A stretch of 63,994 nt of DNA, counting the filler, from Fonticula-like sp. SCN 57-25 (lineage: Eukaryota): the NCBI GenBank assembly GCA_001724245.1. It is 4 parts of 4 records of this genome, joined end to end, with 100 filler letters (N's around TTAATTAATTAA, not from the genome) between each part and the next. Parts side by side here need not be neighbours in the genome. Positions count along the whole stretch, not along the records: positions 53,188 to 63,994 come from MEDX01000215.1; 3 more parts are not named here. The stretch is one strand, 5' to 3'. The notes under the pieces are model-generated. The model saw only the letters and a list, made by a program, of their open reading frames with translations. It did no database searches and had not been told where the DNA came from. Of the stretch, positions 13,662 through 63,994 are shown in pieces. Position 1 is the first letter of the stretch. Every line of letters begins with the position of its first letter. Position numbers and translations under genes: made by a program.

Positions 13662-16141
13662 ATGGCGCTCGGAGTTGGAGCGCTGCCGAACCGGCTGGTT
13701 GACTACTTTGCTATCGTCGGTCTATCTGAACAGACACAGCTTCGCCCCGATGTTGGCGTTGACAGCGGCGCGATTGAGGCTGAGCTGCTGACGCGGTACC
13801 CTCCGGATCATGCCGACTTTACGCTCGACGAGCAGATGCTCCCGTGGCTCTGCTTTCCGTCGGACGTGCGCATCACCGAGGAGCAGCGCAGCCCGTACCA
13901 CCACATGTTTGTGCTCACCAAGGTGGACGGGATCTGCGTGTACGGCTTTTGCTACGTTCTCTCGGAGCCCATGGTCGGTGCCGTCGATGACGGCGATCTG
14001 TTGTGCCTGCGGCGGTACATTCCTAAAGCAATCTGCCTGCTGTCGCACTACCCGCTCTTTTCCCCGTTCCGCAAGCTGCTCGAGCACCTGCGCGCCTTTT
14101 CCAAGAGCCCTGAATCGCTCGATCTTCCCCTCGAGTGCATCATCTCGCAGATCATCCACGATCTGCCGTTGCCTTCCGCCGGCGGCCCCCCCACGCAGAT
14201 GGCGCTGTACGAGGAGGATCCCATCGTCTTCCAGCGCGCACCCAACACGCACATTGAGCCTCTTCGCATTCCTGTCCGCCGCCTCCTTTCCCTCCTCCAT
14301 CTCGACAACGTGCTGCTGGTACTTAACGCCCTCCTTCTTGAGCGCAAGATCATCCTGCTCGGCGATCGCCCGATGCAGCTCACCGAGGTCGCCGAAGTTT
14401 TCACGCAGCTTCTCTTCCCCCTTCACTGGCCGTACGTGTACATCCCCTGCCTGCCAAACCACCTCGAGGACGTGCTCGAGGCGCCGCTGCCGTTCATTGT
14501 CGGCACGTCGCCCGAAAACATCAACCTCGACGCGCTCCCAGAGGACGCGCTCATCGTCGACCTCAAGAACGACGAGGTGTTTGTGCCGCCGGGCGCGTTC
14601 CCGGAACTTCCCGCGCGGCCCGCCGCCGTCCTGCGCTCGTCGCTAAAGATTGCCATCACGGACGGCGACAAGCTCAATGACGCGGTCGTGGACAGGACGG
14701 TGCAGCAGGCCTTCCTTTCGTTTTTTGTGTCGGTGGTGCACGACTGTGAGGCGCACTGCCTCGTGAGGTCGAGCAGCACAGTGCTGTCGGCGGACGCGTC
14801 CGGAGACTCGCTCGACGGGGCAACCAACGTGCGTAGCTTTTTTTTTTGTGGTTTTGCAATGCTAACGTGTGCCTCTAGTTTGACATTGAAGGCTTCATTG
14901 ACGCTCAGCCCGCCGAAAGCCGCGCCTTTTACGCCGACTTTCTCTCTGGCCAAACCTTTTCCAACTACCTCGACGAAAAACTCCTCGGCCGCTCCTCCCT
15001 CACGCGCCTCTTTGACGACGAAATGCGCCGCGTCAAGGAAAACGGCACTGTCTTTTTCCCGCCGCCGCCGCCCAACACGCTTCCGCCGGTCGTCGTCCCG
15101 CGCGCCTCGCTCGACGACTTTCACATGCGCGCCGAGTACCGCGACCCGTCCCGCCTGCTCCGCTTCCCATTATTCGACGCCGAGCACGTGCCGCGCCTTA
15201 CGCGCGCGCGCCTCACGGTCAGCACCGAGTCGCCGATGCGCCGCCGCCGCATGAGCATATGCGCGTCGGCGCCCGGTCAGCCTGCGTCGGCGCTGCTCCT
15301 AAGTCCAGGCGGTTCGACGTCGGGCGCGCAGTCGAGCGAAGAGCAGCGGCGCGTGCTTCACGAGCGGCTCAAGATGACGTGCCGCGAGCTCATTATGCGC
15401 CGCGGCGAGTCGCGCGATTCGTCGCCCGTGCTCGCTGCGTCCGTCGCGGCGGCGCATAAAGAGGCGCGCGTCGTGGCGAGCGAGCGGATGGCCATGCGGC
15501 TCGCGAGCGCGCTTGAAGCCATTTTTGCGCACGAGTATTTGCCGCAGGAGCCGCGCACGACGCGCGCCGCCGCGCTCTGGCAGAGGATAGAGGCGTGCAA
15601 GGACAAGACTGTTGCCGCGCACGTGGAAATTATAAATTCGCTGACGGCGGTGCGGCCGGGCGTGTCACGTGGGCGCGCGTGGGTCCGTTTCGCGCTTGAA
15701 AAGAGGTCGCTGTACGCGACAGTAGAGGCCGTGCTGGATGAGTACAGGCAGTGGGCGCCGCTGTACAGCCCCGCGGCGTTTATGCGAGACGAAAACTGCC
15801 GCGTTGCGATGGCAACGGCGCTGCTTGGGCTGCTCGAGACCAACTTTGAGGGTATTTTTAGCGACATGTTTGGCGTCGGCGTCGACGGAAAGAGGTCGAG
15901 AAAGCAATCATCGACATTACTAATTAGCAAGCCGACCGATTTGAAGCAACAAATTGCGGCAAGGAGAGTGCCGTTCAGTGGAGGGGCGCTCTACAGGTCA
16001 ATGAATGGCCACGTGGCGCCGCCGCCGTTGTCATTGGCGATTGAGATTGTAAAGTCGAGCTCGATCACGCTGTTTTCCAACAAGGGGACGCCGGCGACGC
16101 CACGTGCAGAGACGCCCGTTATGAGAATGTCGAGCTTGTAA
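13662..16141 (+). CDS. DENN-domain + RUN-domain protein (Rab GEF, DENND5-like architecture)
   Basis: uDENN LVDYFAIVGL..LCFP; DENN PKAICLLSHYP, LLERKIIL, FPLHWPYVYIP; RUN LEAIFAH..GRAWVRFALEKRSL..LYSPAAFM; one intron ~14830-14878. Confidence 0.88.
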
Positions 16142-16413: not shown

Positions 16414-19400
16414 TTACTCTGACGAAAGCGCGCTCAAGTGCGCAAATATCTCTGTAATGAGCGGCCTCTGCGCGTACTTTTCAATAAACACATTCGCGAC
16501 AATAACCGCCATTTCGTCGACAATAAGGTCGCCCGTCGGCTGCGGCACCTGCAAGAACCTCCCCTGGCACACGCTCTTGCCAATGTCGACCTCGGTCCAG
16601 GTGTCCCACGGCACCGTGCGCGTCAGCATTTCCCAGAGGACGACGCCGTACGAGTAGACGTCGCTCGCCATGTCCTCTTCGACGGACCAGGGGGTGAGGG
16701 GGTCGTGGATGTGGTCAAACATCTGGGGGGAGGCGTAGCGGAGCGAAGAGCCGGAAACAAGCGTCGTAGGGGTGTCATTTCTGAGGAGAAAAGCAGAAAA
16801 AAGCAGAAAAAATGGGCACAAAAATACACAAAAATGTACCAAATTTACATCAAAATTGCAAATTTAACATCAAAATGCACAAAAATGCACAAAAATCAAC
16901 CAAAATCAAAAATAAAAATTTAGCAACAATCCCAATCTTTTCTCGCGCGTACGGTGTGCGACACGTTGACAGGTCACATAGCACAGGCGTCGGGTACCGC
17001 TCCCCCGGCGCCGCCTCCTTTAGCAATATCTTTGTCGACTTTACATTCCTGTGGGCAATTCCCAGCTCGTGAATGGCGCGCAGCCCCGACGCAATCCCCG
17101 TGGCCAAGTGCAGCAGCATTTCCGGTCGAATAGGCGAGCTGGTCGTTTCGTGGACAAACATAAACAGGTCCGAGCGGTAAAAGCGCGTGAAAATGACGCG
17201 CGGCACCATTGAATAGGCCACAATTGCGACGACATTCGGGTGGAAGGAAAGCGACCAATAGAGGGAGACTTCAAGGCGGAAGCGCTCGTCGTTTTCGTCG
17301 TCGGTCAGCGTGGGCTTGCCAATGTACGACTTGGCGGCAAGTTGGTTCGTGCCGATGCGCTTAACAATCGTTTCATCGGAGATTTGGGCGCTGTAAACGG
17401 TGCGGCTGTGGCTCGACTGTGCGAAAAAAGTGAAAAATATGGTTAGAAAAAGTGCAAAAGGTGGTCAGAAAAGGGTTAAAAAGACCCAAAAAGGGGCCAA
17501 AAAAGGGCCAAAAACAAACAAAAACAAACAAAAAATGGCGTACGCGAACGTGCGCGCCTGCTTGAATGCACTTGTCATAGTCGACGCAGAGGAAGCCGGG
17601 GAGCGCCACTTCGAGCATTGTGTTGACGATGGTGTCGGCGGCGTTGCCGAGGTGCTCGCGTGACTCACTAAACTTGGAGCTGCCGCGCGTCTCGGCAAGC
17701 GACTTTGTGTACATCTGAATCGATTTCTGTGCAAAAATAGCGGGAAAAAGCACAAATCATGACAAAAGTGACCAAAATTGCAACAAATTTGCAGCAAAAC
17801 ACAACAAAATGACCAAAAACACACCAAAAAATATCATTGTTAGCGCACATAAAAACAAATGTCTCAACGTACGAGAGAGTTGAGACCGCCGTACTCTGCC
17901 ATGGCCGCCGTCTGCCTCTTGTGCCTCCTCCTAAACACGACCACAATCGCAATGGCAATAACAAGGAACACGACAACGACCGCCACGCTGACACCCGCAA
18001 TAATCCCCGACGCGAGCCCGAGCCCCGGCTCCTCCACAATACTCTCCTGCGTCGACTGCGTTGTGGCAATAATGCGCGCGCCGACCTGCTCGACACTTTC
18101 GCCCTTGCCCGCCAAGATGAGCACTTCGTACCGCCTTCCCGGCTCGAACGCGCTGATTGTAATGCTCGACGCCGGCGCCTCGACGCGCTTATCGAACGTG
18201 AACCCCGCGGGCGCCTCGCGCTTGGCCGCCATGTGGCGCCAGTACGCCTCATAGTACTCTGCGTGCGCCGACGCGACCCACGAGACGGTGAGCGACGACC
18301 CGCTGACGGCCTCGAGCTTGAGCCCGCTGACGGGCGAAATGTACGTCGCGACGGTGAGCGCGAGCGCGTTGCGCGTGCCGTAGCCGCGCTCGTCGCCGAC
18401 GCTGACGCGGAAAAGGTAGACTGTGTCGGGGAAGAGACCCGTGACGACGAGCTTGGGCTGCTTGAGGCCGACGCCTTCGCCGGAATTGGCAATGACAAAG
18501 GCGCTCGCGCTCATCGCTACTTCGACCATAAAGGTCGTGTTGGCAGTCATGTTCACCGCCGTCCAGGAAAGAGACACTTCGGAAGAGGTGCGCGAGTCGC
18601 ACACGAGGTTGGACAGCGTGCCGGCCTCGTCGACGGGTATTAGCGTGCAGGGGTTGCTGAACAGCGACTCCCACGTGCCGTTCGCGTAGCAAAGGCGCGA
18701 GGGCGGGCCGAGGGGGGAGGGCTCAAAGTCGGTCGGGCAGTTGCCGACGGACGTCTCGCCAGCGGCAGCGGAGGGGAAAAAGGTCATTCCGACCGTCTCG
18801 CTGGGGCAGTCATCATACTTTATGGTGCACGGGGAAGTGATCGTGGCGTTCCATGCGCCAGAGGCAAGGCATACGCGGCGCGGCGTGCCTGCATAACCGG
18901 CAATGCACTGCCCAACAGTCTCCTGGCCGGCGCCCGTCGCGGCCCAATTTGCGTTGTCGTCCAATACGGCCGGGCAAAGCACCGCCTCGCACGGGTCGAC
19001 AATGTCGCCCCAGTTGCCGCTCGCGTCACATGACCGCCGCGGCGAGCCGACAAAGCCAGCGGGGCACGCGCCTTCAACGGGGCCAGAAAGGGCGGGCGTC
19101 AGCGGCCAGTTCACGTGGCCGTCAACCACGGCGGGGCAGACGTTCTGTGCGCAGGGGTTGGCGATCGATTCCCATTCGCCGAGCGACGAGCACCGACGCG
19201 AGGGGCTGCCGGAAAAGCCTGCGTCGCACTTGCCAGCGGCAGAGCTGCCAGCAGCGGTAAGCGGCCACTTCACGTGGCCATCAACAAATGCCTGGCATGA
19301 TCGCGCGGTGCATGTGCCAGACGCAGCCGTCCATGTGCCATTAATAAGACAGTCGCGCACAGGGGTGCCGTCCGAGCCGGCGGGGCACGCGCCCTGAACA

Positions 19401-19727
19401 GAAAAAGTGCCGGCGGGCGTCAGAGGCCACGCGCCAGCGGCCCCGTCGAGCGCCGCACACGTGGTCCTGATGCACGGGTTGGTCACGGCAGAGTAGATAC
19501 CGCTTTCTGAGCAGTTGCGCAGCGGCGCGCCCTGCCATCCTGCGACGCACGTGCCGCGCACGCCATTCGTCATCGAGTTTTCCTCGGGCCACATGGCGTT
19601 GTCAAAGGTGCCATTTTGGCAGCGGATGCGCGCGCACTCGCCGCTTACAGCGCCCCATACACCACTCGAAAGGCACTCGCGCATCGGTGTGCTGCCGCCG
19701 CCATAGCCCGTCAAACATACGCCATTG
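16414..19727 (-). CDS. Single-pass receptor pseudokinase (>=6 HRM-like repeats, 2 FN3, TM, TKL-type kinase fold); 5' truncated at contig end
   Basis: Repeats C..WPLT.AG..G.C..G..G.P.R.C...G.W...PC; FN3 SLSWT/LFPDTVYLFRV; TM GIIAGVSVAVVVVFLVIAIAIVVVF; kinase HPNVV, IAHRNVKS, SDVYSYGVVLWEMLTRTVPW. Confidence 0.85.
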
Positions 19728-19827
19728 NNNNNNNNNNNNNNNNNNNNNNNNNNNNNNNNNNNNNNNNNNNNTTAATTAATTAANNNNNNNNNNNNNNNNN
19801 NNNNNNNNNNNNNNNNNNNNNNNNNNN
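19728..19827. other. Artificial contig linker (N44-TTAATTAATTAA-N44)
   Basis: 100-nt N run with a six-frame stop cassette; genes are cut on both sides. Confidence 0.97.
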
Positions 19828-36414: not shown

Positions 36415-36514
36415 NNNNNNNNNNNNNNNNNNNNNNNNNNNNNNNNNNNNNNNNNNNNTTAATTAATTAANNNNNNNNNNNNNNNNNNNNNNNNNNNNNN
36501 NNNNNNNNNNNNNN
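36415..36514. other. Artificial contig linker
   Basis: Identical 100-nt N/TTAATTAATTAA cassette. Confidence 0.97.
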
Positions 36515-53087: not shown

Positions 53088-53187
53088 NNNNNNNNNNNNN
53101 NNNNNNNNNNNNNNNNNNNNNNNNNNNNNNNTTAATTAATTAANNNNNNNNNNNNNNNNNNNNNNNNNNNNNNNNNNNNNNNNNNNN
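53088..53187. other. Artificial contig linker
   Basis: Identical 100-nt N/TTAATTAATTAA cassette. Confidence 0.97.
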
Positions 53188-54414
53188 AGGATCAGTTTGC
53201 AACAGTTCAACTTGACCAGTATTAAGACCTACAATAATGTTGCAAGACGCAGCTTGATACGACAATGACGTCACCTGCATAGCAAAATGGATGAGCGATA
53301 TAAATAGACAATGCATGACACACCTCTGCACCATATTTGTATTTTGCAGTTTGCACTCCATCAGAGGTGCGCCAAATAAGGAGGGATTCATCGTTTGACC
53401 CAGTGATCACGTGTGATTCATCGCCGAGAAAGGCGCCGCCACAGACACTACCCGTGTGCCCCTTGAGTGTCACGTGAGGAGTGGATGACCACGTGGCATC
53501 ATATGGAACATTCCAGATGGAAGCAGTACTGTCATCACTTGTGACCAATAGCATGCGGCCAGAGGGACTGAAGCAGAATGAAATGATCTAGGAATAATTA
53601 GTAGTAAGTATAATTATATAGACGATTACAGTATCATACTTGACGAGAATGATACTTGATATCTGATACTTGCGCCCATTTGCCATTGGTCAGTCCAAAA
53701 ATGTACACGTGGCCATCAAAACATCCCGCGGCAAGAATATTCCCATCAGGGGAAAAGGCAACACGCCACACCTAATACTTTCTTGTGAGCAACAGCAATT
53801 ATTAATCATTCAAATACGCACCATAGTAGACAATCCAGTCAATGTTTGAATATCAGCATAGTTGTTGGATGGACTCAAGAATCTCACTGCTTTATCATCT
53901 CCACCGACAGCAAGGATCCCACTGGGACTGAATGCGCATCCAAACAACTAGACAAGGGATGAGCAGAGGAAGAGCGAAAACATGATGCATACAGGCTTGT
54001 TGATCTTGTATACTGTCGAGTGCGCATTGTTGTTTGTGACTTGGACAACACTGCCACCATGTTCATTGGCTGTCACGGCAACAAGACGCGTCCCGTCGGG
54101 CGACCACGCAACATCAGCCACCTTTCACGATGGTCAGAGAAAAAGAGTCTAAAGTGGGCGACAAGGGTGGCAAAAGGCGCGTACATGGCTATCACACTTC
54201 GCAGTGTACACATTTTCCTGCGTGGCAATATTGGTGATGCAGAATGACTTGTCACTACTGCCTGTTGCCACCAAAGTGCCGTCGGGGGAAATCGCACACC
54301 CATACACCTGATAACACAAGCAGCATCAGACCAGCAGCACATCAAAAGCAAAGAAAGACGTACGATACCCGTGTGGGGTTTAATAACCGCCTTCTTGACC
54401 AATTGATGCGCCAT
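53188..54414 (-). CDS. WD40-repeat protein, >=7 exons, 3' truncated
   Basis: Spliced repeats VYGCAISPDG, VADVAWSPDG, LFGCAFSPSG, VWRVAFSPDG, IISFCFSPSG, LKGHTGSVCG, VTSLSY. Confidence 0.85.
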
Positions 54415-55263
54415 TATGACTACCACTCTTTTCTCTTTCTCTTCCTACAACTTCAACTGACTTTACTCACGCACAGCCAACACTCGATTGTCCACTTGCG
54501 CGCACAGCAGACACCAGGCAGACACCAGGTAGAGACAGGCACTTGCAAAGTCGGCCACGTGGTGGTGCAAAGTCGGCCACGTGGTTGTGTAATATATCAC
54601 ATGATAAACATGCATCCGGCCCTTTTAGCGTCACGTGATGTCGCCTCTGTGCAGCAACACCACAAGCCATTGAAGTGAAATATTGGCCATCATTATTGTG
54701 TGATCATGCAACTATCCATAGAGCTTTGAGCCTCGCTGGCAACGAAAGAGTCACGCGCGACAGTCACGATGAACATTTTGCTTGCCCAGGATAGCAAGGA
54801 ACGTTGCAGAGGCCGTATTGGTTGCCACGATTGCGGGACATTAGCATGACCACCCGACGAACTAAGGGATCACATCGAGGCCAAAACACCTCTGCAGCCA
54901 CATGAGTCTGAGGAAAAAAATTTTTAACGACTTGCGGGTAAAGCGGCCCATTTTTTCATGTCATCTCTTCATCTAATCCTGTTCTATGGCCCTATCATGG
55001 GCATGTTGTACGGTCACCGAAAGTGACTTATACGTTACCTTCACGACCGCCTTTTGTTATTTTATGCTTCATATTTGTCCATATTATGTATTGTGACCGT
55101 GTTCTTGTTTCCATATTTTCCATAATCATTGTACGTGCACACCCATGATACGATCACCCATGACCCCCATGCGCTCCCAGCGGTCCACTAACAACATCTC
55201 TTACACAATTGTATTAAAATATTTCCGTTTTCCTCTTTCCTAAATACATTCTCTCTTTAAAAA

Positions 55264-55977
55264 TTAGCGGTACATATAGTCAGCCTCGATATTCCTCGCG
55301 ATCTCGGCCTCCCACTTGTCTCCATTGGCGAGCAGCTTTTCCTTATTGTAGAGCAGCTCCTCGTGTGAGTATGTCGAAAACTCTGCGTTGGGCCCCTCGA
55401 CGATGGCGTCGACGGGGCACGCCTCCTGGCAAAAGCCGCAGTAGATGCACTTGGTCATGTCAATGTCGTAGCGGGTGGTCCGGCGGGCGCCATCGGCGCG
55501 CGTCTCGGCCTCGATGGTGATGGCCTGCGCGGGGCAGATGGCCTCGCAGAGCTTGCAGGCGATGCAGCGCTCCTCGCCAGAGGGGTACCGCCGGAGAGCG
55601 TGCTCGCCGCGGAAGCGAGGCGAGAGCGGGCCTTTCTCAAAGGGATACGCGATCGTGTAGCTCGGCTTGAACATGCCCTCGAGCGCGACCCAAAGGCCGC
55701 GGCCAATCTCGGTCATGAAAAGCTCGTACGCATTGCGGTCCATCACGGTTTCGTGCGTGGCGGGGTGAAGAGGATCAACATCCTCGGGGGCGCCATAGGC
55801 ATGAAGGCGATCGCCCTCGGCGCTGGGATCACGAGGGAAACGGAAATTCACATTCGCGAGGGGATCGCTCGAGGGGGTGCCAGAAGTGGGCTTGGGGACG
55901 TGAGCAGAGGCAAGGGCGCGAGAAGAGAGAACGGCGGCGGAGCGGCGCGGCAAAAGGCCACGCAGAGGACCGAGCAT
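55264..55977 (-). CDS. NDUFS8: Complex I Fe-S subunit NDUFS8 (TYKY)
   Basis: [45 protein letters not shown]; Arg-rich presequence. Confidence 0.97.
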
Positions 55978-56041
55978 CGCAGCAATCGTGGGCACCGGAT
56001 CCCTTATCACCGCACCACCAGGAAGAAAAAGTCGAACCGAA

Positions 56042-56111
56042 AAGTGACGTCACGCGTGACGTCACTTATAATCGGTGACGTCACAGTGTCATTTTGAAAC
56101 AGTGACGTCAC
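56042..56111. promoter_or_regulatory. Bidirectional promoter with four GTGACGTCAC (CRE/ATF-type) sites
   Basis: Copies at 56044, 56056, 56075 and 56102 between divergent NDUFS8 and EXOSC8. Confidence 0.7.
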
Positions 56112-56129
56112 ACAATCCGAGCCATCATC

Positions 56130-57169
56130 ATGGCGGCTGCGACGGCGGCATCGGCTGCGGCATCGGCCGCGGCATCGGGCGTTGTCGACCCCGAGACGTT
56201 CCGCAAGGTGCACCCGCGCGAGTACCTGCGCAAGTTTGTGGCGCAAAAGATCCGTCCCGATGGCCGCTCGCTTCATCAGCCGCGCGAGCCGCATCTCATG
56301 CATGGCGCGATCACGACCGCTGACGGGTCGTGCACGGTGCGCGTCGGCCGCACCATGGTCGTCGCGGGCGTCAAGGTCGAGGTGGCTGAGCCGACGCGCG
56401 CGGCGCCGAGCGACGGCTTTCTCGTCGTCAACGTCGAGATCCCGCCAATGTGCTCGCCCAATGCGAGGCCGGGGCCGCCGAGCGATCTCGCGCAGATTAC
56501 AAGCCAGCGCCTCCAGAATGTCCTCACCACGTGCGCATCATCGCCTCGATCTTTCTTTCCATTTCTGACGCAGGAAAATGTTTAGCGCCAAGGTCGTGAA
56601 GCTGTCGGACCTGTGCATCGCCGAGGGCAAGTGCGTCTACGTACTCCACGTGGACATCGTCTGCTGCCAGCTGGACGGATCTCTTTTTGACGCCGCCCTG
56701 CTCGCTGCCCAGGCCGCTCTCGCCGACCGTACGCACATTTTTGACTTATTTTTGACTCCTTTTTACCGTATTTTAACGTCTTTTTTCTGCTTTTTTCATT
56801 GCTTTTCCGTCCTTCCCGCCACTTTTGCCTTTAGTTTCGCTCTTCGCCGTCATCTACAACCCATCCCGCGGCATCGCCGTGCGCGACGCCACCTCCCCCC
56901 CCCGCCGCCTCTCCCTCACCACGACCGCCGTGGCGCTCTCCTTTGCCGTTTTCGACGATCAGCATCTGCTCGCCGATCCCACCGATGAGGAAGAGATGCA
57001 GGCGAGCGGGCACGTGACGGTCGTCGTTGATGATCGCGCGGCGTTGGTGCATCTTGAAAAGGCGGGCATTTTTCCGCTGGACGCGAGGGCACTGGACGCG
57101 TGCTGCAGGGCGGCGTTGGCGCATCATGCGATGTGCGTGTCGATACTCAGGAAGAGGAACGAAGTCTAA
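56130..57169 (+). CDS. EXOSC8: Exosome subunit RRP43/EXOSC8
   Basis: FRKVHPREYLRKF..RPDGR, ADGSCTVRVGRT, RPGPPSD, LCIAEGK, DGSLFDA, LADPTDEEE. Confidence 0.92.
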
Positions 57170-57669
57170 GTGGGGAGAGAAAAGAATTGTATTTGTAGAT
57201 GTACATAGGGATGAGTGATGTCGCAATAAAAAGTTATAATGAATGACTGTCATAGTAGAACATGTCTTTAGTATAGGAAAATGACTCACTTGAGTGTTCA
57301 TTCTATATGAAAGTCGCTGTTTTACATACTTGAATCTGGATTGGGATGAATCAGGGTGTGTGCAGAGAATCTGATGGTTATGCTAAAGATGTTTCACATG
57401 CTAAATAGTATCAAAAGAGCAGATAAAGTGGCTTATTGTAGACCTAAATCGTTCTTTACATGATCAGTACTGTCTCATGTTGATCAGCATTACTTTTCTC
57501 GTCGATCATCGATCGCCATGATTGCAATCGCCATCATCCCCATGGCATCTTTCTGCTCCACAAACCCCAAAATGACTCGATATTAAAACATGAACGTCAT
57601 TTAATTGAAACAAACGAGTTATTTATGTACAGCATAATTCTCTTCTCTTCTCTTCTTTCCCGCCCATTC

Positions 57670-58200
57670 TCATGCGTCCGTCATGGCGGCATCGACGATT
57701 GGCGGGATGGGATCCGCCACCGGCGTCCCTCCCGTGCGCGCGTTCTCCTCGTCAAAGAGGCCGAGCATGTGCTCGCACACGGCGTGGAGATTGTCCAGGC
57801 CGGCGTACATGCACTCGGTGGCGGAATGGCCGGCGTAGCACTGGATGCGGAGATGGATCTTGTCCTCGGAGGGATGCGGAGCGCTGTAGCCGCAAAAGGA
57901 GACACGAGGGCTATTTAAAGAATAATAAATGGTTAGAAAGGGAAAAAAGACGGAAAAAGAGCCTAAAAATAATAATAAAAGATCGTTTGACGCACTCTTT
58001 CATGATGAGATGGCGAAGGGCATTGCCGAGCGTGTGATCCTCCTGAAGAAGCTCGAATGTCGCCTGCTCGCCATTCGGCGTCAATTGCAACTAGACATAC
58101 CAAATATTAGCCACCTTCATTATTGTTCACACAAAAAAGCACGCACAATCTTGACTTTCGGGCGGATCTCCACATAGTACGGCGTCGTTTCCATGCTCAT
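57670..58200 (-). CDS. POLR1D: RNA polymerase I/III subunit RPAC2 (AC19), 3 exons
   Basis: Spliced ATFELLQEDHTLGNALRHLIMK/PRVSFCGYSAPHPSEDKIHLRIQ. Confidence 0.9.
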
Positions 58201-58227
58201 CTTGGCGGCGGCACGTGGAACTCAATA

Positions 58228-58256
58228 TGATCACGTGACTCACCAAATCACGTGAT
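58228..58256. promoter_or_regulatory. Two TCACGTGA E-boxes in a 72-bp bidirectional promoter (POLR1D/DOT1)
   Basis: TGATCACGTGAC and AATCACGTGATT read directly between the two start codons. Confidence 0.6.
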
Positions 58257-58272
58257 TTAGCGTCGACGTCGA

Positions 58273-60929
58273 ATGAGCAAGGTGCGTCGATCAATGCGTT
58301 GCGCATCGATGGTTTCTAATTGACATGCCTTGATAGCCGAACAGCGGAAGCGAGAGCGCGCCGGGTGTGACTCACGGCAAGCCGCTGCTGCAGCAGACGG
58401 GAAGCCGCGGCAGCTCGCCGGCCCCGAAAGGCGTGGCGGATGATCCGCCCATTCCGACTGTCGATGACTCATTCTTCCATCATGAAGACTACGTTCTTCT
58501 CCACAAAAGTGCGTTCCATAATACGTATAATTATTAAGTATTGTTTTATGACTCTTTATGTGTTGTTTTTGTTATTGTTATTGTTCATCTTTTTGCAGTA
58601 GTCATGTTCATGATGCCATGGCACATTCATGACGCACTTTTTCTCTCTTCCTTCTCTCTTTCTTCTCTTTTTCTTCACTTTTCTTCTCTTTTTTCCTTCT
58701 TTTCCACTCTTTTTCGTCACTTTTTCTTTACTTTTCTTTACTTTTCTTCACTTTTTCCACTCTTTTCCTTCCCCTTCTCACTCCATCCCCATCCTTCCTC
58801 TAGATCGATTCTCGATCCCCCCCCCCCCCCCCCGCATCTCCCTCCTCTACCCCGACAACACCCTCGAGCGCTACCTGCTCGTCCCCCCCACCGACCCCCA
58901 CGAGCCCTTCCCCGCCGCCGATCTCGCCGCCACCCTCCGCGTCATCGCATCGTACGCGTTCGCATCCGATGATGCCATCGCGCGGGCGATGCCGGACAGG
59001 ATCGATCGGGCGATGGTGAAGGGGAATGTGAGGATGATTATGGATATCGTGGAGGAGTTTAATATCAAATTGGCAGAGAGACTTGGTCTTAAAGTACGTA
59101 AAGGAAGAGGAAAAGAAGGGAAAAAGAAGGGAAAAAGTGGGAAAAAGTGAAGAAAAGAGGGAAAAAGTAAAGAAAAAGAGGGAAAAAAAAAAGACATATA
59201 ATATGACATAATATGACATAATATGACATATATGATGACATATGATAGTGAATAGTGACTATATATTAGTATATTAGTATATTAGTCTATTAGTGTATTA
59301 GTTGATATTAGTTGATATTAGTTGATGTGTATTAGTTGATACTAACAGTGTGTATAGTATGACAAGAATGACAATGATAACGCCACTACGTCATCACCTA
59401 CGTCATCACCTACGTCATCAGTCCCTCCACTTAAGTTGTCCCAATCAGCACTGCATGACGTCATCTCGCATGCCTGGCGTCAGTCCTATGACCGCGTGGT
59501 CGTCCAGCCTGCCCTTCTCAACCAATACAAGTCATTTTCACGTGAAGTGTACGGCGAGACGCGACATGCGCTGCTGAGGAAAATATTTTCACGACTCGTA
59601 CGAGATGTCCCAACATCGGCATCGGCATCAGCAACATCAGATGCAGCATCAGGATCAGGATCGGCATCAGGATCAGCATCAGGATCTGGTGCAACATCAG
59701 GATCAGGATCTGCATCTGCATCAGGATCAGGATCAGGATCTGCAACATCATCGACATCGGCATCGGCATCGGCATCAGATGCAACATTGGCATCTGCATC
59801 TGCGTCAGGATCAGGATCAGGATCAGGATCTGATGCAACATCAGATTCTGCATCTGCATCTGCATCTGCATCTGGATCTGGATCATCTGCATCTGCATCA
59901 TGTGCATCATCTTCAAAGCGTACCCCTGATTCCACCCCTGCATCGTCTTCTTCCTCATCTTCATCTACTACTACTAAAAGTACTACTTTTCCTTCTTTCT
60001 CTTCTTCAACCCCAGATTCCACCCCTGTACTCACTTTTCCTCCTACCCCAGACTCCACCCCCAACACCACCCCAGACTCCACCCCAAACCGCCCAAAGCG
60101 CTTTATCGACCTCGGAAGCGGATTGGGCAATGTCGTCCTTTACGCCTCTTCCTATCTAAATCTCACCTCCTCAATAGGCATAGAAATGCTAGACACACCA
60201 TATACATATGCAACGCGACTATTGCCAGTATTAAAGCGCCGCATGGCCGCACTTGGCGCGCCAATCAAAACAGAGATAGAGTTACTTAAAGGGGACTTTA
60301 TGAATTCAGAACGGGTAGTTGAGGCGTTGAAGGATGTTGATGTTGTGTTTGTGAATAATTTTGTGTTTGATGAGGCGACGAATATTGGGCTTATGAATTT
60401 GTTTCTGGAATTGAAAGAGGGTGTCACTGTTGTCTCTTTCAAGCCTTTTGGTGACGAAAAAAGCAGTTTAAATAGTGGTAAAAGTGGTCGAGAAAGAGGA
60501 AACATCAACAAGGGCAAGGGCGAAAGCAAATTCAAATTGGGCAAATTCAAATTGGGCAAAAACGACGAAAATGAAAGCAAATTGGGCGCGATTGAGCACA
60601 AGATAAATTCACAGCGGGGCATATTCAGGGTCGAAAAATTCACTTATTATGGCGATGATGGCGTTTCGTGGACAACGTCTGAAATGAGTTATTATGTGCA
60701 GACTGTTGATAGGGGGAAATTGAGAGAGGCTGTGGAGAGAATTCAATTTGGGCAAGGTAAAGGAAAGGGAAAAAAGGAAGAAAAGGGGAAAAGGGAAGTA
60801 AAGAGAAGAAAAAAGGACTATTCTAGTAGTAGTAGTAGTAGTAGTTCATCATCTAGTAGTAGTAGTAGTAGTAGTAGTAGTGAGTTGAGTGATTCGAGTG
60901 AATTGAGCGAGTCATCTGACGAAGATTAG
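58273..60929 (+). CDS. DOT1: Histone H3K79 methyltransferase DOT1, multi-exon
   Basis: YDRVV..LNQYKSFSREVYGET, FIDLGSGLGNVV, GIEM, KGDF, VVFVNNFVF, VVSFKPF, GVSWT. Upstream exons (MSK/PNSG.., LLYPDNTLERYLL) inferred. Confidence 0.88.
59608..60090 (+). repeat. Low-complexity hexamer array (GCATCA/GGATCA/GCATCT) and TPDST repeats inside DOT1
   Basis: Read directly; encodes (SA/SG)n followed by TPDST x5 in the DOT1 frame. Confidence 0.9.
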
Positions 60930-61237
60930 TCAATATTGTATTGAATATTGATTAATATATCATCATTTAACATCATCTAATATGACACTTTCCCATCTAT
61001 TATGACACTTTTCTCTCTTTAATATCATACAATATGATATTGTATCATCTAATATGACACTTTTACCTCTATCTACCATTATGATACATTTCCCTCTATC
61101 ATCTAATATGACACTTTTCCCACTTTGAATTTTACTTTACTATCTCTTGTACTATATTATACATCTATCTACAATATATCTCATTATATAGTACTATATT
61201 AATACATCTATATACACTTTCATTATATACACTTACA

Positions 61238-63994
61238 CTAAATATAGTCACCCAATATGAATACCTTTCCACATACCTTTCTTGCCCTTATAACATCCCC
61301 ACTCATTACTATTTCCACCAGTCCACTTCCCCTTTCCTCTTTTCCCGCCACATCTCCCGCCACTCGCCTAGCCACAACAGAAATCGCCCTCGCATCAACA
61401 TACGACTGTCCACGTGACATGTTTGCAAGTGCAGCTGGCAGTGACTGTCTTGTGGGCAGTGCTGTGGAGAGAAGAGAGGAATGGCGGGAAGGGAATGCGG
61501 TGATGTAGAGGCACGTGACTGACCATGCTCGCATAGCAACAGATGTAATAGTAGGAGTGTTGCTAGTAATAGTAACATTACTAACATTACTATTTATGGA
61601 AGGTGCGTGAAGGGCGATAAAGTCAATAAGGTGTTGGAGGACGAGTTCGATTGGTGACATGTCAATAGTAGTTTCTAATGGTGTGTTTAGTAAAGACATA
61701 GAGTGGGCATAGAGTAGAGAGTGACCATATATCATCGTAATAGTGACAATATATCACTTATATAATATATCTACATATAAACAATATCACTCATCATAAT
61801 ATATCTACATATACAGCAATATCACTCATCTATCTGTTCACAGCAATATCACTTATCATCATCAATGATACTCGATAACATTCATCAGTAACACTCAATG
61901 ACACTCATCATCATACTTATCATACCCATGATCATACTGATTCTCATCATCAATATCAATATCAATAACACTCATCAATATCACTCTATAATACTCAGTA
62001 ACAATCAATAACAGTCAATATACACAGTCATCAATATACACTCACATCACTCATCATTCTTTCCCATTTCCTTCTATTCCCTTCTATTTCGTACCTTCTT
62101 TTCTCCCCTTCATAACAGCCTCTACAATCCCCACCACGTGGCCAAACACCCCCACTGCCCTCACATCACCCGCCCTGCCCCTCAAGACCTCTGCCATTCC
62201 CGCCATTCCCCCAATCACTATTGCAGGCTGAATTCCCGCCAATCGGATAAGCGCATTTACTGCAGAGTCAGCATTTGATGGTCGTGATAGGCGTCCAATC
62301 AGAATTGAGAGAGCACGTGGTGCTGATGCTATGGCCACGTGGACATTGAGTGGGACATTTAACGATGTAGAGAGGGCAGCGAGGTCGGCTAAGATGAGAT
62401 TGGTCACGTGAGTGGTCACGTGAGAATTGGCGGGAAGGGATGCGATGCGTGTGGCCACGTGGGTGAGGCATGTTGGGTTGAGTCGTATGATGGAGGATAG
62501 AAGGAGGGACGATCGCATATCATAGGAGGAGATGACGACATCAGCTAAGGCATCTAGTAGTTCAATTGATCTTGATAGTGTAACAGCACATGATGACGTA
62601 TGTGATGACGTAGTAGTAGTAGTAGTAGTAGTAGTAGAAGTAGTAGTAGTAGAGCGAGGATGACGTAACAGGGAAATGATGAGTGAAAGGCGAGTGTGTG
62701 GTGTCACGTGATCCATAGGGGGTGAAAGAAGGAGTGTGTCGTGTAATAGTAGTAATAGTCGGTGTGGGGAAGAGCATAGTAATAGGGATGAAAGATGTTC
62801 ATCAGATGTAGATGATGACGTGATGATTTGATTGGGTGTCTTGATTGATGTAGACAATTGATTGGATGATGGCATGGCGGGAATGCTCAATTGGGAAGAT
62901 TCAATTGGACGATCAATTCCAACAAACCAATCATTGTCCATATTGTCCATATTGACATCAGTGTCCAATTGAACCTTATTGTCCACTTTTCCCTCTTCTT
63001 TTCCCGCCAAAATATGACCAATTCTAACACGAACATTCTCCTCCAATCCAGACACGCCACTTAGTCTCTTTGCAGCGGCCACGTGGACTGAATATGGCAC
63101 ACCAGCCCTCATCAAAACTGCCTTTAATTGCGCCGCACTCGCTCGACCAATCACAGCGTCAATCGCCTTGCTTTTCCCGCCAATTTCTTGTCCTTTCCCG
63201 CCAATTGCAGAGCATAGACGCACAGCTTGATCAAGTGACAACCACGTGGCCCCATCTTCAAGCATCCTTCCCGCCACAATACCACCACGTGACGCAGCCA
63301 CTTCAACACTCAACGCACGGCCACGTGTACCATCATATTCACCATCATCATCACCATATTCACCATCATGATTTCCCGCCAAAAGTGACTGTATCTTGTC
63401 CAGTAATAATGGCTCAAGTGACCTTATAAGCATTGGCCTATTTGATAGGGCAGATATGAGCATAGTAGTATGCTTCATATTGCAGTTTGCAAGGCAGAAT
63501 GAAAGTGTAGATGACGTAATCAGAGTGTCTGTTTCGACACTTATGCTCTTGATTAGATAGGGAAGGGCGGTGAAAAGTGCGTCATTCGAGATGGAAAGTA
63601 GCCACGAATAGTCCAAAGGAGTCGAATGAGAAGTATAAGTGACGTCATCAGTGATGTCATGAGTGACGTCATCAGTCATATTGACGTCAATATTGTCATG
63701 TTTTCCTCCCTTTTCACCCTTTCCATGACCACCACATGACGCAATATCAGCCAATATTCTCCGACCAGCCCCCCTAATAAAACCCGAATTCGAACACGTC
63801 AACCCAAACAAATCACCGATAAAAATAGAATCCTTATTCACCCACGTGGCCTTCACCAGTCTATCAAGCACAGCAGCATCAACTTGACCACCCTTCAATA
63901 CATCTCTAACGGCCACGTGGAGAAGAACACTCGGCGGAACAACATCAAGCACAGTGGGTGTTGATATGATCACGTGATCTAACCACGTGGGTGC
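61238..63994 (-). CDS. Divergent Integrator subunit 1 (INTS1)-like protein, 5' end outside window
   Basis: SWLL..ALPYLIKSISVETD..SSTLSF and QPAIV..MAEVLRGR..FGHVVGIVEA resemble INTS1 segments as I recall them; long AT-rich intron ~61750-62090. Confidence 0.5.

Follow-up and report, generated by a model that had tools for sequence, protein, structure and literature searches.

The DNA analysed here is a stretch of 63,994 nucleotides from the genome of Fonticula-like sp. SCN 57-25 (GenBank assembly GCA_001724245.1), referred to below as the window. The subject of this report is a dense cluster of short transcription-factor-type words in the two last coding exons of a minus-strand gene close to the window end. 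The window is divided into four pieces by three N44-TTAATTAATTAA-N44 linkers at positions 19728-19827, 36415-36514, and 53088-53187. Each linker was found to consist of a stop in all six frames flanked by two runs of N, and the two complete pieces are 16587 and 16573 bases in length. The cluster sits on the last piece, from 53188 to the window end. Since the linkers join separate contigs, every comparison of the cluster with the rest of the window is a comparison across contigs.

The gene that carries the words converges on a Dot1-like gene and is interrupted by one intron within the region (Table 1). Its upstream open reading frame (ORF), 62084-63994 (-), is 636 codons in length with an open 5' end and has a normal codon periodicity, with G at position 1 and position 2 at frequencies of 0.34 and 0.16, respectively. 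A second, independent assembly contig of 1450 bp encodes 319 of 322 identical residues (P0001), and thus the gene sequence is not a one-off assembly error. The original prediction, made from the DNA sequence, had described this ORF as INTS1-like, and no support for that assignment was obtained. No family was detected in Pfam even at E ≤ 10, no match was detected among PDB sequences at E ≤ 10, and a word-based search for homologues among longer proteins gave nothing. A phmmer search of 1.84 billion representatives recovered only the same sequence, and no homologues were found in metagenome contigs or viral contigs. The sole hint was an Atlas feature match to DUF3730 (rank 15, score 0.88), which lies below the threshold of the tool itself. 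The AF2 single-sequence model is predicted to be all helices with a mean pLDDT of 43.4, which is too poor for a fold search. The database proteins nearest to the Dot1-like protein are 30-32% identical to it, and the lineage is therefore poorly sampled; for this reason the failure to find a homologue is weak evidence in the case of a fast-evolving helical protein.

Table 1. Coordinates of the word-bearing gene, its words, and the comparator patches (window positions)
Feature	Position	Strand	Details
Large coding exon	62095..63994	-	runs off the window end; predicted all-helical; without detectable family
Intron, 420 nt, AT-rich, low-complexity	61675..62094	-	in-phase donor AAGAAG/GTACGA, acceptor ccattag/AAACT (slash, splice junction); none of the five words
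Terminal coding exon, same gene	61238..61674	-	open frame 61238-61735 (-) plus splice phase; 2 CACGTG, 3 TCCCGCC
3' flank, 308 nt	60930..61237		between the convergent Dot1-like gene and the word-bearing gene; no words
E-box CACGTG, 17 copies	61411, 61512, 62135, 62314, 62336, 62405, 62417, 62456, 62705, 63080, 63243, 63286, 63322, 63843, 63914, 63971, 63984		exact word count
E2F-like TCCCGCC, 12 copies	61342..63381	9 on +, 3 on -	11 are the full 9-mer TTCCCGCCA; exact word count
CRE-type, 9 copies	62594..63801		three palindromes TGACGTCA (63640, 63664, 63682); six half sites, mostly GATGACGT (62594, 62606, 62661, 62816, 63512, 63796)
CCAAT pentamer, 20 copies	61252..63755	12 on +, 8 on -	without CpG; exact word count
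CAATTG, 6 copies	62563..63207		without CpG; four within 62855-62971
Patch of 5 E-boxes in 148 bp	62314..62461		includes 12-bp in-frame tandem duplication 62405/62417 (repeat family D12)
Mixed patch, 5 E2F-like words and 4 interleaved E-boxes	63002..63381		includes 21-bp duplication 63175/63196 (repeat families D7, D8)
Comparator patch in low-GC Dot1-like open frame	59388..59544		3 tandem ACGTCATCACCT, one TGACGTCA, one CCAAT, one TCACGTGA; Pfam DOT1 3.8e-43
Comparator, 4 CACGTG in exons of low-GC WD40 gene	53408..53711		read ATW, PHV, SHV, GHV
Comparator, 4 TGACGTCA (as GTGACGTCAC) in 66 bp	56045..56110		between divergent NDUFS8-like gene 55264-56010 (-) and ORF 56130-56585 (+)

The 17 copies of CACGTG were recovered by exact word count at every position that had been reported for them. 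A uniform model predicts 0.63 copies in the interval 61411-63989, in agreement with the earlier estimate of fewer than one, and base composition predicts 0.48 copies; an order-2 Markov model of 61200-63994 predicts 2.7. The window as a whole contains 58 copies, relative to 22.4 ± 4.2 in dinucleotide shuffles, and a count of 58 was reached in 0 of 100 shuffles. The final 4% of the window accounts for 17 of these 58 copies (binomial p of 2e-10). The E-box is found in the extended form GG[CT]CACGTG[GA]CC, that is, GGCCACGTGGCC/TCACGTGA, and a C or T precedes CAC in 31 of the 34 half-sites. A pyrimidine at this position is the form preferred by basic helix-loop-helix leucine zipper factors.

The sharpest word of the region is TTCCCGCCA, an E2F-like word that was overlooked in the original prediction and which we take to be of the E2F type from its consensus. 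There are 13 copies in the window, relative to 0.74 expected, and 11 of these are located between 61342 and 63381 (p of 7e-14). Three of the E2F-like words are joined to CCAAT as TCCCGCCAAT. When all words of 61200-63994 were counted without bias, the E2F-like word ranked first, with 12 copies of TCCCGCCA and 11 copies of TTCCCGCC relative to expectations of 0.05 and 0.03, respectively. Next in rank were CCACGTGG, GGCCACGTGG, and GATGACGT, with 8, 7, and 7 copies relative to 0.14, 0.02, and 0.24, respectively. The three TGACGT(CA) reported between 63640 and 63690 are indeed present, each as a complete TGACGTCA palindrome of the cAMP response element (CRE) type. The description of the signal as mainly one of ACGT cores was not borne out, given that TTCCCGCCA is the most extreme word, with 11 of its 13 window copies in this region. 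CCAAT and CAATTG are enriched as well.

None of the nonpalindromic words shows a significant preference for one strand: the ratios are 9:3 for the E2F-like word (p of 0.15), 5:1 for the CRE half sites (p of 0.22), and 12:8 for CCAAT (p of 0.5). Because the strand bias is not significant and two of the words are palindromic, the set would suit readers of double-stranded DNA. Around the E-box, the G + C content (GC) is raised no farther than about 3 bases out, and runs of T and A flank the core of the E2F-like word. The repeat families of the region consist of words of 9-13 nt with short biased flanks only. A dispersed repeat or mobile element was considered as the carrier of the words and was ruled out, since the copies do not have long shared flanks.

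The words occur in every codon phase and in both orientations across the ORF. The CACGTG sites were said to occupy all three codon phases, and this was found to be correct for ORF 62084-63994 (-), where nine are read as His-Val, three as x-Thr-Trp, and three as x-Arg-x (TRG, SRG, or PRA). The synonymous codons of the large exon were shuffled 2000 times with the amino acid sequence kept. The observed 15 copies of CACGTG compare with 2.83 ± 1.39 in the shuffled sequences, and this count was never reached (0 of 2000). The counts of CCACGTGG, TTCCCGCCA, TGACGT/ACGTCA, and GATGACGT are 8, 9, 12, and 7, relative to 0.36, 0.21, 3.0, and 0.81, respectively (0 of 2000 in each case). For the two words without CpG, the corresponding values are 18 relative to 8.5 ± 2.2 for CCAAT (0 of 2000) and 6 relative to 1.75 for CAATTG (2 of 2000). 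With the five words pooled, the total is 60 relative to 16.5 ± 3.5. With codons redrawn from the usage of 26 GC-rich frames, the expectation for CACGTG was 2.77, and with the usage of the low-GC Dot1 exon it was 0.76; in either case 0 of 2000 draws reached the observed count. The 26 comparison frames are unvalidated gene models, namely, stop-to-stop ORFs picked by length (25 with 200 or more residues, plus the shorter start-codon frame 56130-56560), and 17 of them, including 16 of the 25, have a Pfam match. The original prediction had held that its case would fall if the enrichment vanished with the amino acid sequence preserved; the excess was found to persist under each of these nulls.

The words also shape the protein, since His-Val is both fixed in its codons and over-used, and the codons of Thr-Trp and Ala-Gly are skewed. 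Every one of the nine His-Val pairs in the large ORF is written CAC GTG, which has a chance probability of 2.5e-10 given the codon use outside those pairs. The same spelling is found for 10 of the 33 His-Val pairs in the GC-rich frames (Fisher p of 2e-4). The His-Val dipeptide is used about 5-fold more often than expected (9 relative to 1.8). Thr-Trp is written ACG TGG in three of three cases, and Ala-Gly is written GCG GGA in five of eight. The words thus force the choice of codons and even of amino acids.

These results bear on the proposal that the words are a by-product of the protein, of codon usage, or of a repeat-protein motif. In its favor, five of the nine E2F-like words of the large exon encode hydrophobic-Ala-Gly in one frame, where a helical-repeat motif is possible. 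In addition, the residues encoded by the E-boxes of the WD40 gene are conserved among 12 aligned relatives. That alignment contains 12 of 33 matches, which are short and 64-78% identical by BLAST; 21 long multirepeat proteins (27-44% identical) were left out. The conservation could be explained equally well by a constraint on the protein or on the DNA. The WD40 exon at 53300-53587 (-) has about a dozen relatives in metagenome assemblies at 61-78% identity, and these could represent a paralogous gene family of this organism or of similar ones. For Dot1 and the large ORF, no relative closer than 30% is present. Set against the proposal are the amino-acid-preserving nulls, which never reach the observed counts, and the occurrence of the same words in three frame and strand combinations with synonymous choices of nine in nine, three in three, and five in eight. 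A protein or codon artefact is therefore excluded as the cause of the excess, as had been claimed, and we consider the by-product proposal to be scarcely credible.

The cluster lies within DNA that is losing its CpG dinucleotides. The region had been described as richer in AT and poorer in CpG than the rest of the window, and this is the case: GC is 0.445 and the observed/expected ratio (o/e) of CpG is 0.71, relative to 1.13-1.35 in the bins up to 59432, other contigs included. The low-GC parts have CpG ratios of 0.72-0.75 and CpA/TpG ratios of 1.23-1.5, whereas the corresponding values for the GC-rich contigs are 1.2-1.3 and about 1.05. The low-GC parts thus bear the signature of CpG deamination. 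Repeat-induced point mutation was rejected as the cause of the AT-richness, since CpA/TpG is raised and not depleted. For the exon bases outside the words, the CpG o/e is 0.54 and the TpG + CpA o/e is 1.28; for the intron and 3' flank together, GC is 0.27 and the CpG o/e is 0.16.

The words themselves are letter-perfect within this decaying stretch. There are 17 intact copies of CACGTG and 7 copies of all nine one-letter variant classes pooled, whereas the corresponding numbers for the GC-rich contigs are 27 and 337. Likewise, TTCCCGCCA is present in 11 exact copies and one copy with a single-letter change, relative to 1 and 23, respectively, in the GC-rich contigs. CATGTG, the product of CpG decay in the E-box, occurs only twice despite the low CpG o/e of the exon bases around the words. 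Of the 97 CpGs in 61238-63994, 30 lie within CACGTG or CCCGCC alone; in the GC-rich contigs the number is 104 of 5572.

One explanation for this contrast is passive sparing, in which the CpGs bound by methylation-sensitive factors survive in a methylated stretch that drifts toward AT. The CpG deficit outside the words, the accompanying excess of TpG and CpA, the large share of CpGs within two words, and the near absence of CATGTG are all consistent with sparing. However, sparing cannot lift a word above its starting density, and CACGTG is about 10-fold more dense here than in the GC-rich contigs and about 35-fold above the expectation from base composition. Sparing also does not fit with the 11 copies of TTCCCGCCA relative to one in 53 kb of GC-rich contigs, with the over-use of His-Val, or with the enrichment of CCAAT and CAATTG, which have no CpG to be spared. 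The original proposal that the sites are spared from CpG erosion is thus right about the eroded state of the surrounding exon DNA and fails on density, on His-Val, and on the CpG-free words. Sparing accounts for the survival of the CpGs within the words, but as the sole cause it is largely refuted, and as an account of the cluster it is improbable.

The density of the words differs from gene to gene. E-box, E2F-like, and CRE words taken together have a density of 19.0 per kb in the large exon and 10.0 per kb in the frame 61238-61735, which holds the last exon. Elsewhere the density is 10.4 per kb in the WD40 exon frame 53300-53587 and 0-6.3 per kb in 27 of 29 other frames. A similar density in all genes, which the original prediction had named as the outcome that would count against it, was not seen; two short low-GC exon frames reach about 10 per kb. 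When four word classes were counted in 1-kb bins, the last two kilobases contained 22 and 24 matches, and the next-highest bin, with 14, is a bidirectional promoter. CACGTG alone has a density of about 7.9 per kb in the large exon (15 in 1898 nt), whereas the three GC-rich contigs, with 27 copies in approximately 53 kb, have about 0.5 per kb.

Within the gene, only exons carry the words. In the 728 nt made up of the intron (420 nt) and the 3' flank (308 nt), not one copy of any of the five occurs, which has a Poisson p of 7e-6 at the exon density of the CpG-containing words. A broad chromatin-domain signal, as had been suggested, is a poor fit to this restriction. The same observation bears on the possibility that the words act as elements of the mature mRNA, through exon definition, protein binding, or self-pairing of palindromes. 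The strict exon restriction, the 9:3 lean of the E2F-like word to one strand, and the independence of frame would all be expected for RNA-level elements. However, the strand bias is never significant, palindromes and half-palindromes are typical of dimeric DNA binders, and clusters of the words are also found at promoter positions that are not transcribed. An exon of more than 1.9 kb with a strong donor would, moreover, probably need few exon enhancers. We therefore regard a function in RNA as quite unlikely.

It had also been proposed that the E-boxes resemble the sites of a Cbf1-type protein in a centromere-like or domain-marking array. CACGTG is the core of RTCACRTG, and the region is richer in AT than its surroundings. 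Nevertheless, the RT flank is present at only 7 of the 17 sites, the E-boxes stretch across 2.7 kb of spliced exons and are missing from the AT-rich noncoding DNA, and four other words are enriched together with the E-box. The analogy has no support from these data, and such an array is very improbable.

Several comparators show how the words are used elsewhere in this genome. The two further low-GC genes of the contig, Dot1-like and WD40, have lesser forms of the pattern. The four copies of TGACGTCA between two divergent genes at 56045-56110 show that this word is used at a promoter position in the organism; the site itself looks like a textbook bidirectional promoter made of one word. On the same contig, E-box triplets were found at promoter positions 54556-54637 and 58212-58254. 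The GC-rich frames 14879-16141 (+; DENN/RUN) and 17864-19726 (-; HRM + fn3) contain five copies of CACGTG each. In about half of these E-boxes, CAC is preceded by a purine (G or A) in one or both halves, which sets them apart from the sites of the cluster, and some of them may be compositional.

The patch in the Dot1-like frame includes one TCACGTGA that occupies the variable residue of the motif FS-x-EVYGE. Arg occupies this position here, and the two homologues have Pro or Asp, as judged by eye, since the aligner misplaced the segment. The Dot1-like gene has in addition a Ser/Gly/Ala/Thr low-complexity insert of approximately 150-190 residues at 59600-60060, made of coding microsatellites (GCATCA/GGATCA and others). 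The insert separates the FS-x-EVYGE and DLGSG motifs of the catalytic region, and the two homologues are without it. In a search for orthologous DNA through the Dot1 domain in metagenome contigs, one distant locus was obtained (L001; 51% identity over about 40 residues), and its word counts are unremarkable. A search of genome contigs through the WD40 alignment found no orthologous DNA.

Since neither sparing nor a protein or codon artefact accounts for the excess, either selection on the words or a process that makes words is needed. In the latter case, a mutational or repair drive would make or restore exact words that have no function of their own. The candidates are a sequence-specific T:G mismatch repair similar to the very-short-patch repair of bacteria, biased gene conversion at bound sites, and in-frame replication slippage; very-short-patch repair is the bacterial analogy for such a drive. 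The excess of exact words over their one-letter neighbors is what directed repair predicts, and the CpG-to-TpG signature implies frequent deamination mismatches. The low-GC stretch is rich in short tandem duplications and coding microsatellites, and at least four pairs of words have a spacing of 12, 21, or 24 bp and flanks that are partly alike (repeat families D7, D12, and D13). On the other hand, a separate drive would be required for every one of the five words, which are unrelated to each other and of which two lack CpG. When copies within 40 bp were merged by eye, the E-box still occupied 11 separate places relative to 2.8 expected, and the dispersed copies have no flanks in common. The neighboring Dot1 exon has the same composition as the word-bearing exon and much slippage, yet it contains only 2.0 words per kb. 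A drive of this kind, through any of the three candidate routes, is thus unlikely, though less so than sparing or a role in RNA, and it is the main alternative to selection.

Selection for binding is favored because five unrelated words of the promoter type, present on both strands, are enriched together and kept exact. The reading we tentatively prefer, with somewhat less than even confidence, is that transcription-factor-type words are kept by selection at the DNA level over coding exons, which would form an intragenic regulatory or chromatin platform. What these exons carry is a dense, mixed cluster of words of the type that dimeric transcription factors recognize, with E-box (GGCCACGTGGCC/TCACGTGA), E2F-like (TTCCCGCCA), CRE (GATGACGT(CA)), CCAAT, and CAATTG words as the set. 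These words would be held by selection on the DNA itself, most likely through the binding of proteins. The exons may double as an internal enhancer or promoter, or as a recruitment site that sets the state of chromatin or methylation for this low-GC gene, and the effect could be either activating or silencing.

Some points weigh against this reading. Words that are confined to exons are not what a pure DNA platform predicts. The neighboring copies include in-frame tandem duplications at spacings of 12, 21, or 24 bp, and slippage therefore adds to the word count. The comparison set consists of about 30 unvalidated stop-to-stop frames on four contigs of one metagenome bin. Finally, the rest of the window has just two copies of TTCCCGCCA, and the assumption that it serves promoters in this organism relies on its consensus.

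A broader and more speculative proposal, which we consider unlikely, is that the cluster is a eukaryotic counterpart of the iterated-word overlays of bacteria. Exact transcription-factor words would run through the exons of particular low-GC genes, would be held by selection, and would recruit a chromatin state. By analogy, one version of this proposal suggests an ancient PRC1.6-like system of E2F and MAX that recruits silencing and cytosine methylation through the exon words. The recruited methylation would itself be the cause of the CpG erosion and of the drift toward AT, which reverses the cause and effect of sparing. The iterated-word proposal also suggests that the patches in the Dot1-like and WD40 exons are weaker cases of the same rule.

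The Pfam domains detected on the four pieces of the window (SNF2, RasGEF, DENN/RUN, HRM + fn3, Ephrin_rec_like, Mical, and DOT1) identify the host as a eukaryote, and spliceosomal introns are present on the last contig. When the stretch 59300-63994 was compared with sequencing runs, 0.99 of the sampled words were found in one bioreactor-metagenome run, with partial matches in wastewater and "fungus metagenome" runs. DNA runs that contain 26-48% of the words of this stretch were also identified. This nearly complete match indicates that the contig derives from an uncultured organism. No RNA sequencing run containing the stretch was listed among the runs searched. That the low-GC block is viral or otherwise foreign found no support in the search of viral contigs, and the genes are spliced.

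Some further properties of the last contig were noted. In the first coding part of the Dot1-like gene, at about 58990-59030, the third codon positions are GC-rich on one side and AT-rich on the other, with the change completed over a few dozen bases, as judged by eye. This very sharp boundary inside an exon could be the border of a mutational regime, a recombination boundary, or an assembly join. Both introns inspected have a yeast-like branch-point word near the acceptor, at 59335-59358 (gatactaacag) and 61675-61700 (tttactaaacac), together with a GTACG donor, and these words are a possible clue to the lineage. The noncoding segments 60930-61237 and 61675-62094 are almost free of G on the plus strand and contain stuttering units of 10-25 nt, such as ATCTAATATGACACTTTTCCC in about four copies; they show strong strand asymmetry and slippage. 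An Rfam search of 53188-63994 returned only a subthreshold match to the C/D-box snoRNA family sR28 at 61838-61892 (-), with 25.3 bits relative to a gathering threshold of 39 (E of 0.003). This match is within the intron in the sense orientation and may be due to chance in TGATGA-rich DNA.

If the words are bound and selected, the gene would be an extreme example from nature of one sequence that carries two codes. The regulatory words would be dense enough to dictate the choice of codons and amino acids, as with every His-Val, and the gene would offer a clean system for measuring the extent to which a protein yields to regulatory DNA. Whether factors bound in a gene body guard against methylation-linked decay or recruit it could be learned from the same gene. 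An E2F-type word paired with CACGTG outside of animals would, if real, bear on the age of the silencing logic of the E2F6/MAX type. If a drive through repair or gene conversion were responsible instead, it would be a eukaryotic analogue of very-short-patch repair that shapes the frequencies of words. The practical value is limited for now, as the organism is known from metagenome contigs only and one gene was examined.

The cluster can be compared with several known systems. No report of a comparable pile-up in exons was found in the general literature searched, which does not show that none exists. In the logic of the CpG island, bound factors keep their own CpGs unmethylated and hence undecayed, and the survival of in-word CpGs while others decay is alike here. 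The usual criteria for a CpG island are a GC above 0.5 and a CpG o/e above 0.6. Unlike an island, this region has a GC of 0.445, with a CpG o/e of 0.71 that falls to 0.54 outside the words, and retention alone cannot yield the observed density. The consensus of Cbf1 at the centromere element CDEI is RTCACRTG, and a point centromere combines an AT-rich core and a third conserved box in a single compact noncoding element. The CACGTG core is shared; a fitting flank on one side or both is present at 7 of 17 sites, the sites extend over 2.7 kb of exon, and no single compact noncoding element was seen; the third box was not searched for.

The identities of the factors discussed here are presumed from matches to consensus sequences. 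Transcription-factor sites within exons ("duons") and exonic enhancers are known (PMC13216554; PMC6790085; 10.1101/085795), and regulatory words are reported to overlap coding exons and constrain the choice of codons, as they do here. In the present case, candidate factor words occupy each codon phase of a spliced open frame, with an excess that 0 of 2000 synonymous shuffles reached. Duons usually comprise one or a few sites per exon and are defined by occupancy, whereas here approximately 60 exact words of five kinds, defined by sequence, occupy 2.3 kb of exon. Unlike duons, the array also shapes the amino acid content.

In the mouse, the targets of PRC1.6 are reported to combine E2F6 sites (TCCCGC) with MAX/MGA sites (CACGTG), a pairing that is their hallmark, and to recruit silencing ending in DNA methylation (PMC8195999; PMC8639735; PMC5375644). 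The co-occurrence of the two words is the same here, with 12 copies of TCCCGCC and 17 of CACGTG in 2.7 kb of a CpG-eroded stretch. The mouse sites are described as promoter CpG islands near start sites (PMC8195999), whereas the words reported here are in 3'-terminal coding exons with a GC of 0.445-0.47 and a CpG o/e of 0.71-0.75. The closest bacterial parallel among the systems compared is HIP1 (GCGATCGC) of cyanobacteria, a short palindrome that is reported to be hugely over-represented in genes independently of frame and is apparently selected (PMC5861425; PMC4390886). The frame-independent excess of a short word inside genes is common to the two systems. HIP1 is reported to be genome-wide, bacterial, and tied to DNA methyltransferases, whereas the cluster reported here is specific to a gene within the window, eukaryotic, and composed of several words.

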